A stretch of DNA of 12,677 nucleotides, taken from positions 309-12,985 of the forward strand of contig JAVZBY010000014.1 of the NCBI GenBank assembly GCA_038874655.1, in the 5' to 3' direction. The DNA is from Candidatus Woesearchaeota archaeon (lineage in GTDB: Archaea; Nanobdellota; Nanobdellia; Woesearchaeales; GW2011-AR15). Below are positions 1,988 through 12,560 of the stretch, piece after piece. Each line of letters starts with the position of its first letter. The first letter of the stretch is position 1. The notes under the pieces were generated by a model. The model was not told the origin of the DNA. It saw nothing but the letters and a program-made list of their open reading frames with translations, and did not search any database. Position numbers and translations under genes: made by a program.

Positions 1988-2416
1988 ATGTCAAATACAG
2001 AAATAAGAAATAAAAAAAATTCTCACAAAAAAAAATTTCATATATCCCAAAAAGATAAAATCTCAAGAGAAATGTATCTTAAATCAATTTATTTATTATT
2101 AGATAAAAAAGGAAAAATAAAAGCAATTGATTTATCAAATTATCTAAAAATAAAAAAAAGCTCTGTTTCAGAGATGTTAAAAAAATTAATTCTAGAAAAA
2201 TACATAACAATAAATAATCATTTCATTAAACTAACTAAAAAAGGAGAAAAAGAAGCTAAGAATGTTTTAAGAAAATACTTAATTGTAAAAGATTTTTTAA
2301 TAAATGTTTTAAAAATTTCTCCTGAAAAAGCTGAACAAGAAGCCTGTGAATTAGAACATGGTTTTTCTGATGAGAGTATTGCTAAATTAAATATATTTTT
2401 AAAAACTATTAAGTAA
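1988..2416 (+). CDS. DtxR/IdeR/MntR-family metal-dependent transcriptional regulator (no SH3 domain)
   Basis: EMYLKSIY, HTH with SSVSEMLKKL, LTKKG wing, EACELEH dimerisation/metal motif. Lies directly upstream of an iron permease. Confidence 0.9.
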   Translation: MSNTEIRNKKNSHKKKFHISQKDKISREMYLKSIYLLLDKKGKIKAIDLSNYLKIKKSSVSEMLKKLILEKYITINNHFIKLTKKGEKEAKNVLRKYLIVKDFLINVLKISPEKAEQEACELEHGFSDESIAKLNIFLKTIK

Positions 2417-2469
2417 ATTAATTTTTTAAAAAGTTATATCAAAAAGTTCTATTATTTTGATAAAAATTT

Positions 2470-2491
2470 AAAGTTAGGTTAACCTAACTTT
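2470..2491. promoter_or_regulatory. DtxR-family operator (22-bp perfect palindrome)
   Basis: AAAGTTAGGTT|AACCTAACTTT is a perfect inverted repeat. Its core TTAGGTTAACCTAA resembles DtxR-family (SirR/MntR/EfaR-type) boxes. It sits between the regulator and the FTR1 gene. Confidence 0.85.
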
Positions 2492-2493
2492 TC

Positions 2494-2507
2494 AAAAGAT
2501 TTATAAA
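2494..2507 (+). promoter_or_regulatory. Archaeal BRE/TATA promoter of the FTR1 gene
   Basis: Purine-rich AAAAGA followed by TTTATAAA (2500-2507), about 31 nt upstream of ATG 2539. Confidence 0.6.
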
Positions 2508-2538
2508 TGAAATCTTTTTTATAAAATTCGATATTTTA

Positions 2539-3357
2539 ATGTCAAGTTTCATAATTGCTTTTAGAGAAACATTAGAAGCATTTCTAATAGTTAGCATTGT
2601 TTTAGCTTTTTTAAAAAAAACTAATAATCAAAAATATAATAAAATTGTTTATTTTGCAATTTTTCTAAGTATTTTATGCAGCATTTTTTTTGCATTATTA
2701 TTCTTAAAAGTTTATGGTTCTTTCTCAGGTAGAGGAGAAAAAATTTTTGAAGGAATAACAATGATTATTGGCTCATTTTTATTAACAACAATGATTTTAT
2801 GGCTTTTAAAGCACAGAAATATAAAAAGTAAAATCCAAAATAAAGTTTCTGAAAATTTATCAAAAGAGAATATAATAGGTATTTTTTTATTAGTTTTTTT
2901 ATCAATTTTAAGAGAGGGCATAGAAACTGTTATCTTTTTATTTGCTGCTAGTTTTTTATCTGTATCAAATAATCTATTAAGTGTAATTTTTGGTATTACA
3001 TGTGCATTATTTATTGGATATTTAGTTTATAATGCCTCACTTAAATTTAATATAAAATTATTTTTTAATATTACAAGTGTTTTATTGATACTTTTTGCAG
3101 CAGGATTATTTGCTCATGGAATTCATGAATTAGAGGAAGCTGAAATTTTAAATCCAATTGTTAAAAATATATGGGATCTCAACCCTGAAGCTCCTTCCTC
3201 TGAAGAGGGTATTTATCCATTAATGCATGAAAAAGGTTTTATTGGCTCAATCTTAGTTAGTTTATTTGGTTATAATGCAAACCCCTCTTTATTAGAAGCA
3301 ATGGCTTACCTAAGTTATTTTTTAATTCTATCTATATTAGTAAAAAAAATAAGTTAG
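2539..3357 (+). CDS. FTR1/EfeU-family high-affinity iron permease
   Basis: Two RExxE motifs (RETLE, REGIE), about 7 hydrophobic segments, GIHELEEA, and a C-terminal LFGY..PS motif. Confidence 0.93.
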   Translation: MSSFIIAFRETLEAFLIVSIVLAFLKKTNNQKYNKIVYFAIFLSILCSIFFALLFLKVYGSFSGRGEKIFEGITMIIGSFLLTTMILWLLKHRNIKSKIQNKVSENLSKENIIGIFLLVFLSILREGIETVIFLFAASFLSVSNNLLSVIFGITCALFIGYLVYNASLKFNIKLFFNITSVLLILFAAGLFAHGIHELEEAEILNPIVKNIWDLNPEAPSSEEGIYPLMHEKGFIGSILVSLFGYNANPSLLEAMAYLSYFLILSILVKKIS

Positions 3358-4401: not shown

Positions 4402-5469
4402 TTAATTTCTAATTTTATAATTTCCCTTATTTATTTGGCTTTGTATATAATCTAATTCTGCTCTAACTGCTCTTAAAATAACCGATTGCATTCTACCTTT
4501 TGCAAAATTTTGAACCGCACCCTGAATGTTTTCATTTTTAAAAGGATTATTATCTATATTTCTTTGATTATCCTCAATTAAATTCCTTGAGAAAAAAAAT
4601 ATTTGTATATATTCATCTCCACCACTACCATGATATCTAAAACCAATATCTCTCTCTCTTGTAATTTCAGATATCGTTTGACTAAAAACTTGTAATAATG
4701 CATCAACCATACTTGCACCAAGATTATTATTATTATCTTTCATTCCCTCCAAATCCATTGCTGCAACTATAATATCATAGCCTTCTTGATCATAACCTAA
4801 TAGATATCTTGCTTGCAAATAAACTAAAGTTTGTTGAAGTGATTGAGTAATAGGATTATCAGATACATTAATTTCTTTTAATTTTTGTTTAAGTAAATAA
4901 TCTATTAATTTTCTTATATTTTCCTGCTTATAAGGTTCATCTTTATTTAATCCCTTTTTAATTTCATCAATATTAACTTGAAATCTTTCAAAAATAGGTT
5001 TTAATTTTTCCTCATAAAATATTTTTTCTAAACTAGAAAATGTTCCATTTACATATGTTCTAATTTTTGAAAGAGCATCAACAATTTCATTGATAGCTTC
5101 TTTTTTAATACTTTCAAAACTATAATTAGGTGTTTGTAAATTCAGTCTATCAGGAGAAACATAAAAACTTGGCAATTTTTGATTTGACAATAAATTTTCT
5201 AAAGGACTTCCTAATGTTTTTTTATTTGTATCCACTCCATCTAGAGATCTTTGAGAAGCATAATTCACCATTAAAATTAATGGAGAGATATTATTTTTAT
5301 ATGCCTCCTCTTCAAAAGTTTCCCATAATTCATAAGTATAAGCTATTCTAGGTAATAATGGCTTCAAAGGTTTAGAATTATTATCCGGAGCATTAACTAA
5401 CACTCTACCCTCTCTTAATAAACACAAGAGACTTCTTTCTTGGTCTGTCAATAAGTTATCTGGCTCCAT
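4402..5469 (-). CDS. Protein with a divergent C-terminal GGDEF (diguanylate cyclase-like) domain and an unknown N-terminal region
   Basis: MDLEGMKDNNNNLGASMVDALL matches the spacing of DxDxFKxxNDxxGHxxGDxxL, followed by RERD and RY-HGS-GGDEY. TATA-like TTTTATAA about 25 nt upstream on the - strand. Confidence 0.72.
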   Translation of the reverse strand: MEPDNLLTDQERSLLCLLREGRVLVNAPDNNSKPLKPLLPRIAYTYELWETFEEEAYKNNISPLILMVNYASQRSLDGVDTNKKTLGSPLENLLSNQKLPSFYVSPDRLNLQTPNYSFESIKKEAINEIVDALSKIRTYVNGTFSSLEKIFYEEKLKPIFERFQVNIDEIKKGLNKDEPYKQENIRKLIDYLLKQKLKEINVSDNPITQSLQQTLVYLQARYLLGYDQEGYDIIVAAMDLEGMKDNNNNLGASMVDALLQVFSQTISEITRERDIGFRYHGSGGDEYIQIFFFSRNLIEDNQRNIDNNPFKNENIQGAVQNFAKGRMQSVILRAVRAELDYIQSQINKGNYKIRN

Positions 5470-6529: not shown

Positions 6530-6667
6530 TGCTCCTGCGAGGATTTGAACCCCGGCCCCAAGATTTTCGCAGTGAATACCCTCTTTAGAGGGTATAACGC
6601 TCCGGCGTTAACCTACGCCTAAGGTTAACCGCAATCTTGTGTGCTATCCAAACTACACTACAGGAGC
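6530..6667 (-). tRNA. tRNA-Arg(GCG) with a 64-nt intron at 37/38 (exons 6667-6629 and 6564-6530)
   Basis: Acceptor GCTCCTG/CAGGAGC+A, D-stem GTGT/GCAC with GGA (A20 Arg identity), anticodon stem CAAGA/TCTTG with loop TT-GCG-G|A, T-arm CGGGG-TTCAAAT-CCTCG. Spliced length 74 nt; CCA not encoded; T-run follows. Confidence 0.92.
6565..6628 (-). other. tRNA intron with a relaxed bulge-helix-bulge motif
   Basis: Exon TTGC (32-35) pairs with intron GCGA (6570-6567), followed by a 3-nt bulge AA|A at the 3' splice site. There is no closing helix after the 5' bulge. Confidence 0.82.
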
Positions 6668-7528: not shown

Positions 7529-10378
7529 TTATTGAAATCCAAATAAACTTGTTTGTTTTGACTCTTTAATTATAGTATCAAAACTTGTATTATAAAAAGT
7601 TAATATTGAATCTGCTATAGGCTTTAATTGTTTTTCAATGTAATGTTCATAATCAATACTATGTTTTATATTCTGAATTGGTTCAGGGCCATCACTAGTC
7701 ATAACATATGCTATTACATTACTAGTTAATTTTTCTAATTTTCTTGCTGCTTTAACATGTGGTGGTGTTGTTTTAGTATAATTATCTAATTCCTTTCTAA
7801 TTGCTTTTTTATATATCAATAAATCATCATATTTTCCATTCTTCAAATCAGAAACAAATTGCTTTATATAATCAAAAACTTCCTTTTTATGAAATATTCT
7901 ATCTAATAATTCTAATTGAAACTTTTTTGATAACTCTGTCCAATCACGCCTAACAAATTCTAATCCTCTAAAATCAATCTTTTCCTTGCCATCTACTATA
8001 ATTAAACCTGCATATCTTTTTTTTGCTCCTTGGTCTGTGCCTCTTATTTTTGGCATAATAAATCTTATAAAGGTTTTTTCAAACTGCAACTCTAAAAATG
8101 AATTCAAATCATATGTATTTTTTACATGTTGTGTCCAAAAATTATTAACATAATCAGAAATTTCTTTTCCAATTATTTGAGCTTTTTCATAATTATCTGC
8201 TTTTGTTTCAATAAATATAGAATCTGTATCACCATAAATAACTCTATAACCTTTATTATCTACAATTTCAGCAGTTTTTTTAACAATAAATTGACCAAAA
8301 TGAGTTATTGCATTTGCCATATCTAAAGAATAAAATCTACATGTTGGATTTGCTAATACACCAAAAAAAGAGTTCATTGTAATTTTAATTGCATAACTTT
8401 TTTCTTGATTTTTTTCTTTTTTAGCTATATCCCTTTGTTTCCATAATTGCTCAATAATTTTAGGTAGAATTCCTATTTTTTTTCTAAAGCGTGCTCCATT
8501 AGGTGCAATAATAATATCATCATCTCTAAATTTCTTATGAATTTCCTTAGGAATAAAAGATAAAGGATCAATATTAAAAGTTCTAATTATACTAGGATAT
8601 AGGCTCTTAAAATCATGCACATTTATAAAATCATAAATCCCTGGAATTGGCTCTCTAACATAACCTCCTTTAATTTTTTCCTCTGTCTCAATATTTGCTG
8701 AATTTGGACAAACATAACCTAATTTCTTTGTTTCTCTAATATACAAACTATCTAATGAGGCAATAGAAGCTTTAACTCTATCTAATTGCATTCCTGTTAA
8801 CAATGATCTTAATATTGTTAATTCTATAATATTCTTTTTCTCCAAAATCTTTAAAACAAGTTCAGCATCTTTAAGGTTATATTCTACCAATTTTAATGGA
8901 TCTTCTAAATAAAGATTTTCTATCTCTTCACCCTTATCAAATTCATCAATTAATAATTTAGATTCACCTAATATTTCTTTTGCTGCTGTTTGTAATTTAT
9001 AATCTTCAATTTCCACAAATGAAGATTTTAAAAGATGCATAGCATCCAAAACCATTCTTCCTGGAAATTCAGCAACAGAATCTTTAAAAAAAGAATCATA
9101 AATCTTTAAAGTACATTGCCAATTAGCCCTTCCTAATATAAAATCAATTTTATGTTCATCAAATTTATTTTTCAAAACTTTAAAATCAAAATCAATTAAG
9201 TTCCAACCTGTAATTATATCGGGATCATAATTTAAAATAATCTCTTTAAATCTTAATAACATAGATTTTTCATCTTGAAAAATTTCAACATAAGGGGTTA
9301 ATTTCAGCTCGGATTTTTTATAAGTTTCCCATTTATTACTTTCCAAAACCAATGTTTTTTTAAAATCTTTTGAATATAATGAAATGCAATATAATTCCTT
9401 CAAATCCATTGAGCTTTCAATATCAATAGAAACCGTTCTTAAATTATTAAATTTTTTAGATATTAATTTTTCTTCATCTGAAAATATCTCTGGTTCTTTA
9501 TAAATTCTATTAACATAATTTCCTTTTTTGTAATCACCTTTTATAAACAAAGCACCTTTTATATCTTTATCAATTAAAAACCTATATACAAATCTAATAT
9601 CTGCTTCATAGGTAATAATATCTAATGACTCTAAAATATCTCTTAAAAAAGAAACATTTTTAGGCAAAAATAATTCAATTTTTATAACATTTTCATCAAA
9701 AAAATTTTTAAATTGTGTTTCTATTATTTTAATAGTATCATTTTTTAGATGATATAACTTCAAAATTTCAGAGTCAGATAAATACTTGGAAAAATTATTT
9801 CTATTATTTGGAGATATACTTTTATTATTATTCAATTTTATAGAAGATAATTTTTTATTACTTTTTATTAAAAAATTAAAAAGCATCTCTCCTATTGAAT
9901 CATAATCTAAATTTAGTTCTCTAATTTTAAGTTTTCCATCATCGAAAGAATCTATACTATTTTCATTGTTAAGATCTTCATAAAAAGCATCATTATCCTC
10001 AATTAAATCTGAATCATATAAATTTTTACTTTCAATTTTTTCATGTTGTTGTGAATTTTCATTAACTTGACTAAATTTTAAATTTGATATCTCTTTTAAT
10101 AAATCCTCAACTTTTTTTTTATCTTTTTTTCTAACATAAAAGTAAGGTTTATAATGATTAATTGTTAAAAAAGAATCACCATCTTCTAATCTACCAAATA
10201 AATAAATATAAGCTTTATTATTTATTATTCTATAGGTTGGATAGACAATAAATCCTGCAACTATTTCGCGATTACTAAAAATTTCACGATTATCAAAAGA
10301 ATTTAAAGTATTTGATAGACTAATATTCTTAATAACACTATTTTCCTTCATATAAAATTCTTCATTTATTTTTTGCAT
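7529..10378 (-). CDS. polB: Family B DNA polymerase (DNA polymerase II-like) with 3'-5' exonuclease and C-terminal PIP box
   Basis: ExoI DIES, ExoII GWNLIDFD, ExoIII YNLKDA; polymerase motifs DFKSLYPSII, KITMNSFFG, YGDTDS, KKRYAG; C-terminal QTSLFGF. Confidence 0.96.
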   Translation of the reverse strand: MQKINEEFYMKENSVIKNISLSNTLNSFDNREIFSNREIVAGFIVYPTYRIINNKAYIYLFGRLEDGDSFLTINHYKPYFYVRKKDKKKVEDLLKEISNLKFSQVNENSQQHEKIESKNLYDSDLIEDNDAFYEDLNNENSIDSFDDGKLKIRELNLDYDSIGEMLFNFLIKSNKKLSSIKLNNNKSISPNNRNNFSKYLSDSEILKLYHLKNDTIKIIETQFKNFFDENVIKIELFLPKNVSFLRDILESLDIITYEADIRFVYRFLIDKDIKGALFIKGDYKKGNYVNRIYKEPEIFSDEEKLISKKFNNLRTVSIDIESSMDLKELYCISLYSKDFKKTLVLESNKWETYKKSELKLTPYVEIFQDEKSMLLRFKEIILNYDPDIITGWNLIDFDFKVLKNKFDEHKIDFILGRANWQCTLKIYDSFFKDSVAEFPGRMVLDAMHLLKSSFVEIEDYKLQTAAKEILGESKLLIDEFDKGEEIENLYLEDPLKLVEYNLKDAELVLKILEKKNIIELTILRSLLTGMQLDRVKASIASLDSLYIRETKKLGYVCPNSANIETEEKIKGGYVREPIPGIYDFINVHDFKSLYPSIIRTFNIDPLSFIPKEIHKKFRDDDIIIAPNGARFRKKIGILPKIIEQLWKQRDIAKKEKNQEKSYAIKITMNSFFGVLANPTCRFYSLDMANAITHFGQFIVKKTAEIVDNKGYRVIYGDTDSIFIETKADNYEKAQIIGKEISDYVNNFWTQHVKNTYDLNSFLELQFEKTFIRFIMPKIRGTDQGAKKRYAGLIIVDGKEKIDFRGLEFVRRDWTELSKKFQLELLDRIFHKKEVFDYIKQFVSDLKNGKYDDLLIYKKAIRKELDNYTKTTPPHVKAARKLEKLTSNVIAYVMTSDGPEPIQNIKHSIDYEHYIEKQLKPIADSILTFYNTSFDTIIKESKQTSLFGFQ

Positions 10379-10477: not shown

Positions 10478-10784
10478 AATTTCACCTCAAAATATTATAT
10501 TAAAATATTAAAATTTATAGCAATTGTTATTTATATATTTTTCCATTCTTTTTTATCATAATTATTAAAAAAATATTCTATTTAGAATAATAAAATTAAA
10601 AATAGAAAAACATTATTCTAATAAAAAATACACCTAATTCGAAAAAAAATCGCAATATAATAATTTAAGATAAAAAATAAAATTTAAAATAATAAAATAA
10701 AAAATATGTCTAAATTCAATTTACTTTTATCAAAAATATATCTTTCTCAATAAATTTAAATAAATAAAATTTTTTTTATAAAAT

Positions 10785-12560
10785 ATGTCCAAAATGTCAA
10801 AAAGAATTGCTATTGTTGATAATTCAAAATTAAAAGATGATGAAAAGAAAAAGTATATTCAAAGTTTATGTCCAATAAATAGAACTGGAAAAGAATGCAT
10901 AACAATACAAGGAAAGAAACTTTTAATAGATGAGTCGTTATGTATTGGCTGTGGCATCTGTGTAAATGCTGCACCAGAAGCAATTAAAATTATAAATTTA
11001 CCTAGTGCATTAGAAAAACAACCAATTCATAGACATGGTTTAAATGGTTTTGTTTTATATAATTTGCCTATTCCTGTCTTTGGAAAAGTTGTTGGTATTA
11101 TAGGTATTAATGGAATAGGAAAAAGTACAGCAATAAAAATTTTAGCTGATGTTTTAAAACCCAATTTAGGTGATGTAGGAAAAGAAGCAACCATTCAAGA
11201 TTTAATAAATTATTTTAAAGGAACAGAAGCCCAGTTGTATTTTGAAAAAGTAAAAAAAGGTTTAGTAAAAGTTGCTTATAAACCACAGCAAGTTGATTTA
11301 ATAGCAAAACAATATACTGGAAAAGTTATTGAGCTATTAAAAAAAGTTGATTCTCAAAACGATATTTCAAGATTGGAAGAAATAACTAAATTGTTTGAGT
11401 TAGAAAAAATATTAGATAGAGATATCTCTGTAATATCTGGTGGAGAGCTTCAAAGAGTTGCTATTGCAGCAACCTTTCTAAAAAAAGCAAATTTATATAT
11501 TTTTGATGAGCCAACTTCTTATTTAGATATTAAACAAAGATTAAAAATTTCTAAATTAATAAAAAACTTAGCTTCAGAAGAAAATGAAATTGCTGTCATT
11601 GTTATTGAACATGATTTAATTGCACTGGACTATATGGCTGACTTAGTTCATGTAATGTATGGCAGCCAAGGTTCTTATGGTGTTGTTAGTCAATTAAAGC
11701 AAACAAGAAATGGGATTAATGCCTTTTTAGAAGGTTATTTAAAAGAAGAGAATGTAAGATTCAGAGAAACAAAATTGCAATTCAATGTTAAAAATCCATT
11801 TAAAACTACAGCAACCCAAACTTTAATAAAATGGCCTGCATTAAATAAAAAAATTGGTGATTTTGAATTATCCTCTAACGAGGGGGACATTAAATATAAT
11901 GAAAAAGTCGGAATTTTAGGTGAAAACGGAATAGGAAAAACAAGTTTTGTCAGAATTTTAGCAGGAGAACTAAATCCTGATAACATAAAATTAGAATTGA
12001 AAATAAAAGTTAGTTATAAACCACAATATTTAAATCAAGATTCTAATGAATTAGTTATGGTTGTTTTGCAAGAAGCATTAGAAAAATATGAAACTGAATT
12101 AATAAGACCATTAGATATTAAACCTCTTTTATTAAAAAAAATAAATGAGCTTTCTGGTGGAGAGCTTCAAAGAGTTGCTATTGCTTTGTGTTTATCTAAA
12201 GATGCTGATCTATATTTATTAGATGAACCCTCTGCTTATTTAGATGTTGAACAAAGAATTGTCGTCTCAAAAGTTATTTCAAATGTCGTTGAACTAAGAA
12301 AAGTATCTGCCATAATAGTTGACCATGATTTATTATTTTTAGATTATTTATCTGAAAGATTAATGGTCTTTCAAGGTAAGCCTGCTGTTTTTGGAAAAGC
12401 ATTAGGTCCTTTTGATTTAGAAACTGGAATGAACACATTATTAAAAGATTTGGAAATAACACTTAGAAGAGATGAAGAAACAAAAAGACCAAGAATCAAT
12501 AAAGAGAATTCATTCAAAGACAGGGAACAGAAAAGAGAAGGGAAATATTACTATACATAA
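10785..12560 (+). CDS. rli1: ABCE1/Rli1 ribosome recycling ATPase
   Basis: N-terminal Fe-S domain, two NBDs (GINGIGKS and GENGIGKT; SGGELQR twice; FDEP and LDEP; EHD and DHD), hinge RRDEETKRPRINK. The start may be 10785 or 10794. Confidence 0.97.
   Translation: MSKMSKRIAIVDNSKLKDDEKKKYIQSLCPINRTGKECITIQGKKLLIDESLCIGCGICVNAAPEAIKIINLPSALEKQPIHRHGLNGFVLYNLPIPVFGKVVGIIGINGIGKSTAIKILADVLKPNLGDVGKEATIQDLINYFKGTEAQLYFEKVKKGLVKVAYKPQQVDLIAKQYTGKVIELLKKVDSQNDISRLEEITKLFELEKILDRDISVISGGELQRVAIAATFLKKANLYIFDEPTSYLDIKQRLKISKLIKNLASEENEIAVIVIEHDLIALDYMADLVHVMYGSQGSYGVVSQLKQTRNGINAFLEGYLKEENVRFRETKLQFNVKNPFKTTATQTLIKWPALNKKIGDFELSSNEGDIKYNEKVGILGENGIGKTSFVRILAGELNPDNIKLELKIKVSYKPQYLNQDSNELVMVVLQEALEKYETELIRPLDIKPLLLKKINELSGGELQRVAIALCLSKDADLYLLDEPSAYLDVEQRIVVSKVISNVVELRKVSAIIVDHDLLFLDYLSERLMVFQGKPAVFGKALGPFDLETGMNTLLKDLEITLRRDEETKRPRINKENSFKDREQKREGKYYYT

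Follow-up and report, generated by a model that had tools for sequence, protein, structure and literature searches.

A widespread archaeal ABCE1 variant that probably holds a single [4Fe-4S] cluster

The window analysed here is a stretch of 12,677 nucleotides from a Candidatus Woesearchaeota archaeon (GenBank assembly GCA_038874655.1, contig JAVZBY010000014.1, positions 309 to 12,985 of the forward strand). Towards its right end lies a gene for ABCE1 (Rli1), preceded by a divergent gene for a family B DNA polymerase (PolB). The N-terminal iron–sulfur (FeS) domain of the encoded protein, P0001, lacks the four cysteines that hold one of the two [4Fe-4S] clusters of canonical ABCE1 and keeps the four that hold the other. 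The same form is found in many related sequences. The window is AT-rich (GC 0.19–0.28), and the translation of the ABCE1 open reading frame (ORF) contains no stop or frameshift. The features discussed below are collected in Table 1.

The NCBI equivalog model for RLI, NF009945, scores 777.9 bits on P0001 (cut-off 469), with residues 6–591 covering positions 2–590 of the 592 in the model. Full-length ABCE1 from P. abyssi (PDB 3bk7_A) matches residues 6–590 with an E-value of 1.6e-180, and ABC_tran matches in two stretches (Pfam), which represent the two nucleotide-binding domains (NBDs). Judged by its sequence, the gene is an ABCE1 orthologue of a variant type and not a canonical two-cluster ABCE1.

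Table 1. Features of the ABCE1 gene and its surroundings. Positions are those of the window unless another locus is named.
Feature	Position	Strand	Basis
ABCE1/Rli1 orthologue, P0001, 591 aa	10785..12560	+	ORF and translation; alternative start 10794
Tandem 9-nt repeat (ATG TCN AAA twice), encodes MSK-MSK	10785..10802	+	Sequence and upstream alignment
TATA-like box ATTTAAATAA upstream of ABCE1	10754..10763	+	Invariant in 5/5 aligned upstream regions (window, L001, L002, L003, L013)
N-terminal ferredoxin-like (FeS) domain, residues 1-73	10785..11003	+	Aligned to FeS domains of human, yeast, P. abyssi and S. solfataricus ABCE1, E 2.9e-16 to 1.5e-13
Former cluster-I stretch: L16 (Cys1), K21 (Cys2), I25 (Cys3), in conserved Lys-rich motif	10830..10859	+	Position mapping
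C29-P30 (Cys4-Pro), retained ferredoxin-type cluster ligand	10869..10874	+	Aligns to human C29; both 89/89
C38, fifth cysteine, not among the eight canonical ligands	10896..10898	+	Aligns to human C38; 89/89
C53-x2-C56-x2-C59 (Cys5-7), retained ferredoxin-type ligands	10941..10961	+	Align to human C55, C58, C61
A63-P64, Cys8 replaced by Ala, next Pro kept	10971..10976	+	A63 aligns to human C65
Walker A of NBD1, G107-S114	11103..11126	+	G107, N109, G110, I111, G112, K113 invariant, n=59
Walker A of NBD2, G379-T386	11919..11942	+	G379, N381, G384, K385 invariant, n=59
Family B DNA polymerase, divergent upstream neighbour, synteny marker	7529..10378	-	Pfam DNA_pol_B and exonuclease domains
DtxR-family iron-dependent repressor	1988-2416		Pfam
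FTR1 iron permease, after the DtxR gene	2539-3357		Pfam
Type-2 ABCE1 gene in locus L011	L011:3058-4815

Residues 6–41 of P0001 align without gaps to human ABCE1 (5lzv_jj) in phmmer, which places L16, K21 and I25 at human C16, C21 and C25, and pairs C29 and C38 with human cysteines of the same number. Beyond a two-residue gap, C53, C56 and C59 correspond to human C55, C58 and C61, and A63 to C65. Table 1 of a 2026 review (PMC13255074) gives the ligand sets of human ABCE1 as C16-C21-C25-C65 and C29(38)-C55-C58-C61. With this mapping and these ligand sets, the replaced residues make up one whole set, that of the ABCE1-type cluster (cluster I), and the kept cysteines make up the other, that of the ferredoxin-type cluster. 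The original prediction had claimed replacement of Cys1, Cys2, Cys3 and Cys8 with retention of Cys4–7, and it is borne out by the human alignment and the ligand table. A random loss of four of the eight ligands would remove one entire set in 2 of 70 cases. The segment 10830–10976 covers exactly the codons from L16 to P64, and the replacing residues are encoded by TTA (L16), AAG (K21), ATT (I25) and GCA (A63). Each of these codons is at least two base changes away from a Cys codon (TGY), which rules out single sequencing errors as their source. The cysteine spacing equals that of the human protein; relative to P. abyssi ABCE1 a one-residue gap is seen, because the latter has an extra residue between Cys2 and Cys3. 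The fifth cysteine, C38, is also found in canonical relatives and in human ABCE1, where it is bracketed beside C29 in the ligand table of the review (PMC13255074).

In Pfam, Fer4 matches the FeS domain at 21.9 bits (cut-off 21.1), the dicluster family Fer4_21 reaches 16.9 bits on the window protein and remains below its cut-off of 35, and PF04068 (RLI) gives no match to the protein at E ≤ 0.01. Among the eight canonical cysteines, Cys4–7 alone are present, and the protein therefore falls outside the two-cluster definition of ABCE1. It also departs from the two-cluster bacterial-type ferredoxin, having one complete site (C29, C53, C56, C59) and a second one free of cysteine. The arrangement of a single ferredoxin-type [4Fe-4S] site, C-x2-C-x2-C with a remote C-P, is present in the sequence, and the motif is invariant. 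It is very likely that this remaining four-cysteine site still binds a [4Fe-4S] cluster.

The distribution of this form was read from the best 120 matches, drawn from a set of 5.8 billion proteins, and from further ABCE1 sequences. The N-domains were aligned alone (L-INS-i), and the eight ligand columns and the C38 column were used for classification. Among the best 120 matches, 118 were classified, with 99 one-cluster, 16 canonical and 3 other sequences; the last group comprises two proteins with S or T at Cys2 and one without Cys1–3 that retains Cys8. The two unclassified matches are P0055, which is truncated at the N-terminus, and P0115, which looks canonical by eye. Representatives at 50% identity are mostly canonical (92 of the 103 classified, next to 1 one-cluster and 10 other). 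The 75 classified genome loci comprise 7 one-cluster, 68 canonical and 0 other genes; all 55 Nitrososphaerota-type loci are canonical. For all ABCE1 sequences taken together, 296 were classified, giving 107 one-cluster, 176 canonical and 13 other. Where the source gives a name, the one-cluster sequences are labelled Woesearchaeota or Nanoarchaeota; taxon names are those of the record titles, and some loci are titled 'uncultured Methanosarcinales archaeon'. Rarer ligand variants were also observed (P0126 lacks Cys5, and P0087 and P0099 have S or T in place of Cys2), as was a group of longer ABCE1 proteins with a rearranged cysteine pattern, listed together with the rare variants (P0126, P0087, P0099, P0191, P0211, P0213, P0220).

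Within the one-cluster class, the retained site is strictly conserved. C29, P30, C38, C53, G55, C56, G57, I58 and C59 are each found in 89/89 distinct one-cluster N-domains, as is R33. The substitutes at the lost positions are conserved as well. L16 is present in 88/89 domains; position 25 is I in 80/89 and V in 9; position 63 is A in 81/89, E in 5, G in 2 and V in 1, followed by P64 in 85/89. Position 21 is more variable (K in 54/89, Q in 12, R in 10 and L in 7). A conserved basic motif extends across the Cys1–Cys3 stretch, formed by N13 (89/89), K15 (87), K17 (79), D18 (82) and K22 (87).

Substitution rates point in the same direction. Between the window gene and that of locus L001 (85% identical), the ratio of nonsynonymous to synonymous substitution rates (dN/dS) is 0.029 in the first 70 codons and 0.088 in the remainder, the ATPase body, with dS close to saturation. 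The proportion of nonsynonymous differences is lower in the N-domain than in the body in 6/6 pairwise comparisons. Mean identity inside the one-cluster class is 0.706 for the N-domain and 0.659 for the body, whereas canonical relatives show the reversed order (0.601 and 0.650). On these measures, purifying selection is stronger on the one-cluster N-domain than on the ATPase body.

Across 59 sequences of the one-cluster class, neither NBD shows any variation in its Walker A, Walker B, signature and H-loop motifs, indicating that both ATP sites are intact. The invariant ATPase residues in this set are G107/K113, S218–E221, D241–E242, H276, G379/K385, S457–G459, D480–E481 and H514. An AlphaFold2 model built on the alignment of these 59 class members has a mean predicted local distance difference test score (pLDDT) of 89.7 and a predicted template modelling (TM) score of 0.86. 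The 10-residue blocks spanning residues 11–70 have mean pLDDT values of 88–93. Superposed on 3bk7, the model gives a TM score of 0.90 and a root-mean-square deviation of 2.7 Å over 601 columns, and it is predicted to contain the ABCE1 architecture of FeS domain, NBD1 with helix-loop-helix, hinge 1, NBD2 and hinge 2. The model thus suggests compatibility with the canonical fold and is not a proof of stability without cluster I.

The histories of the N-domain and of the rest of the protein are different. In trees of the ATPase body, from which the N-domain was taken out, the forms are interleaved: FastTree on 105 rows requires 14 changes between forms, at least 8 of which are forced by well-supported branches, and IQ-TREE (LG+C20) on 53 rows requires 13, at least 6 of them forced. 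Pairs of close relatives with different N-domains illustrate this. The one-cluster protein P0080 and the canonical protein of locus L065 share 84.3% of their body residues and 54% of those in the N-domain. For P0103, which has a second type of N-domain described below (type 2), and the one-cluster P0043, the values are 91.3% and 56%; for the type-2 protein of L011 and the canonical one of L016, 78% and 49%. Between P0103 and P0043, identity per 20 columns rises from 0.50–0.65 to mostly 0.80–1.00 immediately before NBD1, and the switch between L011 and L016 is visible in the DNA too. In a tree of the N-domain (68 columns, ligand columns excluded), all 26 one-cluster (type-1) domains fall together, with a Shimodaira–Hasegawa-like approximate likelihood ratio support of 96. 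When 11 type-1 rows are constrained to group on the body alignment, the log-likelihood drops by 497 units, with a p-value of 8.5e-07 in the approximately unbiased test, which used LG+G4 and 25 rows picked after the trees had been seen, so as to include the mixed pairs, under a model that falsely rejected 5/71 true clades. Body identity between the classes is 0.641 versus the 0.659 and 0.650 within them, and between-class N-domain identity is always 0.59 or less.

That N-domain type and ATPase body differ in history implies that the N-terminal module has been exchanged, as far as the alignments and trees can tell. Since one locus is involved, the discordance may be read as recombination of this module or as a polymorphism of long standing. 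A few sub-clades are recovered by the two trees alike (the window with L003; P0072 with L012), so that exchange appears occasional and not rampant. The one-cluster pattern is accordingly best described as a widespread, old allele class that is mosaic relative to the rest of the gene, and not as a private loss. The original prediction of a functional single-cluster ABCE1 is partly supported, by evolutionary evidence: the gene is intact and constrained, with one ligand set complete. It needs correcting in that the loss is not peculiar to this genome. A candidate co-adaptation in the ATPase body was considered at L450, which is L in 73/105 one-cluster bodies, a residue outside the three commonest at this position in 29 canonical ones. 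It was rejected as phylogenetic signal, as mixed sister pairs deviate (M in P0080; D in P0043 and P0038).

The type-2 N-domain has lost Cys1–3. P0103, P0391 and P0392 retain Cys8, whereas P0390, P0393 and L011 have Asp in its place, which suggests a stepwise loss in which the orphan Cys8 is the last to go. Type-2 domains occur on at least three ATPase-body lineages, and P0400 represents a further, third N-domain variant. Four representatives without ligand cysteines led to the Nanohaloarchaea. The Nanohaloarchaeal ABCE1 proteins (P0148, P0271–P0389) have no cysteine in the N-domain in 120/120 best matches, which bear the NCBI names Ca. Nanohalobium, Nanosalina and Nanohalococcus. The length of their N-domain is kept and its sequence is conserved, and P0271 scores 711.8 bits on NF009945, so that these proteins set a precedent for an ABCE1 with fewer clusters.

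The neighbourhood of the gene was compared in 21 related loci, from which 140 neighbouring ORFs were scanned with Pfam. A divergent PolB gene is located upstream of one-cluster genes in the window, L001, L002, L003 and L013, and of the canonical gene in L065. Downstream, Lit is found next to one-cluster (L003, L004, L013) and canonical genes (L007, L014, L017, L065), and Endo_dU next to one-cluster (L002, L003, L012), type-2 (L011) and canonical genes (L005, L006, L008, L010, L014, L065). GCD14 accompanies the one-cluster gene of L002 and the canonical genes of L007, L008, L010, L018, L019 and L065. No type-2 locus in this comparison has PolB, Lit or GCD14 at these positions. Because they share this neighbourhood, the one-cluster and canonical forms appear to be variants of a single gene at a single locus rather than paralogues at separate loci. 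One ABCE1 ORF is present in the window and in each of the 21 loci, with no second one in the 12.7-kb window or in the flanks of the loci (up to 10 kb per side). Synteny argues against a second copy within the genome. With the PolB/Lit/Endo_dU locus shared with the canonical ABCE1 of relatives, the window gene most likely encodes the recycling factor of the cell itself, in a single-cluster form.

The start codon of the gene is ambiguous because the 9-nt repeat in tandem provides in-frame ATGs at 10785 and 10794; the second corresponds to the start position of most ABCE1 homologues. The conserved ATTTAAATAA box, a putative promoter element, is located 21 nt from the first ATG and 30 nt from the second. 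The 21-nt spacing resembles the 22 nt counted in L003. In L001, the closest relative, genes for the origin-associated proteins OapB and OapC are located directly downstream of ABCE1 (L001:5847-6842), and the PolB–ABCE1 locus may therefore adjoin a replication origin. In the 949-residue PolB of the window the exonuclease domain begins near residue 256, later than in the 780-residue homologue of L003 (about residue 103), indicating a long N-terminal extension. The PolB homologue of L002 (L002:5240-8731) bears an intein with a LAGLIDADG domain.

We consider it probable that the window gene encodes the organism's ABCE1, which splits ribosomes after termination, with an FeS domain in which a single [4Fe-4S] cluster takes the place of the usual two. 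The ferredoxin-type cluster would be bound by C29, C53, C56 and C59. The hydrophobic or small side chains of L16, I25 and A63 may pack into the former ABCE1-type site, which would be free of a cluster, and the Cys1–Cys3 stretch appears to be rebuilt as a conserved lysine-rich segment (K15, K17, K21–K23), whose lysines could supply contacts with rRNA. The domain would still act as a mechanical wedge in ribosome splitting, braced by protein packing and one cluster. In the archaeal post-splitting complex described in PMC7196836, the FeS domain is located between h44, the h5–h15 junction and uS12, with R2 and K59 contacting h5, K15 and N17 contacting h44, and P25, R28 and S29 contacting uS12. According to the same work, closure of the ATP sites would drive NBD2 into the loop K12-P13-D14, which lies between Cys1 and Cys2, and closure is thereby coupled to domain movement. 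With the offset of 5 given by phmmer, this loop and the h44 contacts would fall in the L16–I25 stretch, and the uS12 contacts P25 and R28 would map to the invariant P30 and R33. In yeast, the ABCE1 clusters are described as an oxidant-sensitive weak point (PMC3442406). A benefit in the form of fewer oxygen-labile sites or a lower iron demand is therefore a reasonable guess.

Several points weigh against this interpretation. Reviews describe two essential clusters on eight conserved cysteines, at least seven of which are required in yeast (PMC13255074, PMC6088178); a working protein without four of the eight would therefore need compensating changes. Our scan of the ATPase body for columns that co-vary with N-domain type returned one strong column (L450), and no compensating change was identified. 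The confident AlphaFold2 fold does not prove folding without cluster I, because the method ignores cofactors and has seen canonical ABCE1 structures. Finally, the search for further copies covers only 12.7 kb of this genome.

This last point leaves space for a canonical two-cluster ABCE1 elsewhere in the genome, in which case the window gene would be a specialised or partly redundant paralogue, and gene conversion between the two copies would explain the mosaic, with bodies sorted by lineage and N-domains by type. Discordant histories of N-domain and body are a pattern possible under concerted evolution of paralogues, and a review mentions two ABCE genes in a few genomes (PMC6088178). The shared neighbourhood of one-cluster and canonical genes and the lack of a second ABCE1 ORF in the regions covered make such a paralogue unlikely, and the fact that in the one-cluster class the N-domain is more tightly constrained than the body speaks against it as well. 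Among the matches listed, there is also no canonical/one-cluster pair with an equal-sized longest contig, although this is a weak check; the one-cluster matches include ones on contigs of 1,157,790 bp (P0017) and 712,229 bp (P0407). An artefact of sequencing, assembly or chimera formation, or a decaying gene, is scarcely credible. The data do come from metagenome assemblies, and some mosaic examples are on short contigs (P0103, 2045 bp; P0080, 3877 bp), but the pattern is present in 107 independent sequences from several sources, each lost position requires at least two base changes in an intact ORF, dN/dS is 0.03–0.09 and all catalytic motifs are invariant.

The nature of the metal centre bears on a different alternative, in which the four retained cysteines bind zinc or a [3Fe-4S] or [2Fe-2S] cluster, or form disulfides, making the protein a non-canonical metalloprotein or a cluster-free one. 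Four cysteines are able to bind zinc, the fold evidently manages without clusters in the Nanohaloarchaeal proteins, and Fer4 exceeds its cut-off just barely. However, the invariant C-I-G-C-G-I-C with its distant C-P (89/89) has the geometry of a [4Fe-4S] site and not that of a zinc ribbon, and the nearest solved structures outside ABCE1 are [4Fe-4S] polyferredoxin subunits and ferredoxins. We regard a centre other than [4Fe-4S] as improbable, and retain the single-cluster ABCE1 as the preferred interpretation.

A broader proposal concerns the family as a whole, and we put it forward tentatively. The clusters of ABCE1 might be dispensable braces and not functional cofactors, with the N-domain as an exchangeable cassette whose two-cluster, type-1 and transitional type-2 alleles circulate among Woesearchaeota-like lineages. 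Such alleles could conceivably move by recombination near the junction of FeS domain and NBD1 at one conserved locus, or persist as a long-lived polymorphism. As a similarly speculative extension, the oxygen or iron supply of the habitat might maintain them, and the Nanohaloarchaea might represent the cluster-free end state.

Elsewhere in the window, the original prediction had pointed to a DtxR–FTR1 iron uptake unit. The gene pair is real (1988–3357), but it is located about 7.4 kb from ABCE1 behind several unrelated genes and offers no evidence for an iron rationale; no link between the pair and ABCE1 was found in the window. A tRNA gene at 6530–6667 (minus strand, 138 nt, Rfam 47.9 bits) is interrupted in its anticodon loop by about 67 nt that resemble an archaeal intron. 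Its anticodon is GCG by eye, and ARAGORN reported none. The ORF at 4402–5469 (minus strand, 355 residues) gives a weak partial match to GGDEF (Pfam, 31.1 bits, residues 228–282) and 24.6 bits to TIGR00254, below the cut-off of 37.4. A GGDEF-like match is odd for such an archaeon.

The window protein has the same domain order and length as canonical ABCE1/Rli1 (P. abyssi 3bk7; S. solfataricus in 6tmf; the human and yeast ribosome complexes), and shares with it all ATPase, hinge and C-terminal motifs and, as predicted, the overall fold. The ferredoxin-type ligand set is also shared, and the uS12-contacting P and R after Cys4 are kept. In contrast, L, K, I and A stand where canonical ABCE1 has the ABCE1-type ligands (human C16, C21, C25, C65), PF04068 is unmatched and the lysine-rich motif in the Cys1–Cys3 stretch is new to the window class. 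The C58A mutant of yeast Rli1, as described in PMC3442406, is likewise viable with an incomplete ligand complement. It differs in that a single engineered change affects the ferredoxin-type cluster and leads to a labile [3Fe-4S]+ centre and oxidant sensitivity, whereas in the window class a whole cluster site is replaced naturally by conserved substitutes. The Nanohaloarchaeal ABCE1 comes from another DPANN lineage and has a degenerate FeS domain of conserved length in a protein that passes the RLI model, but all eight ligands are lost and, in detail, the sequence of its N-domain bears no relation to that of the one-cluster type.

Single-cluster ferredoxins, which appear as weak PDB matches (1rof/1vjw and 2z8q, E 0.01–0.04), similarly keep one C-x2-C-x2-C...C-P site and have lost the second; they are free electron carriers, whereas the domain of P0001 would serve a mechanical role as part of a twin-ATPase protein. 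Ferredoxins with one cluster are regarded as descendants of those with two. ABCF factors such as EttA are also soluble ribosome ATPases with twin NBDs (PDB matches with E-values of 1e-27 and weaker, TM scores of about 0.5). They are without an N-terminal ferredoxin-like domain and differ in linker and arm elements, and the window protein falls far short of the cut-offs of the NCBIfam ABC-F models. No description of a one-cluster or cluster-free ABCE1 was found in the open-access literature, subscription papers being outside the scope. No paper there combines ABCE1, iron–sulfur and DPANN, and the one that names both ABCE1 and DPANN does so in unconnected passages. Among the literature matches listed, ABCE1/Rli1 does not co-occur with Woese-, Nano- or Pacearchaeota, nor do Nanohaloarchaea with ABCE1/RLI, and nothing relevant links Nanohaloarchaea with SufB; the listed matches on missing conserved cysteines in the FeS domain are reviews that give the canonical view.

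Few proteins of archaea and eukaryotes are as highly conserved as ABCE1, and the purpose of its clusters has never been settled. The class described here suggests, from sequence comparison, that one supposedly indispensable cluster can be spared. The mosaic would be one of the rare instances in which a core translation gene has had a module exchanged. If our interpretation is correct, the natural one-cluster and apparently cluster-free lineages provide proteins already tested by evolution for asking what the clusters do. They could reveal whether cluster I is a structural brace only and which residues replace it, and whether its removal alters the sensitivity of translation to oxygen and iron. 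ABCE1 is commonly invoked as the protein that makes Fe-S assembly indispensable, and this argument would then need to be qualified.

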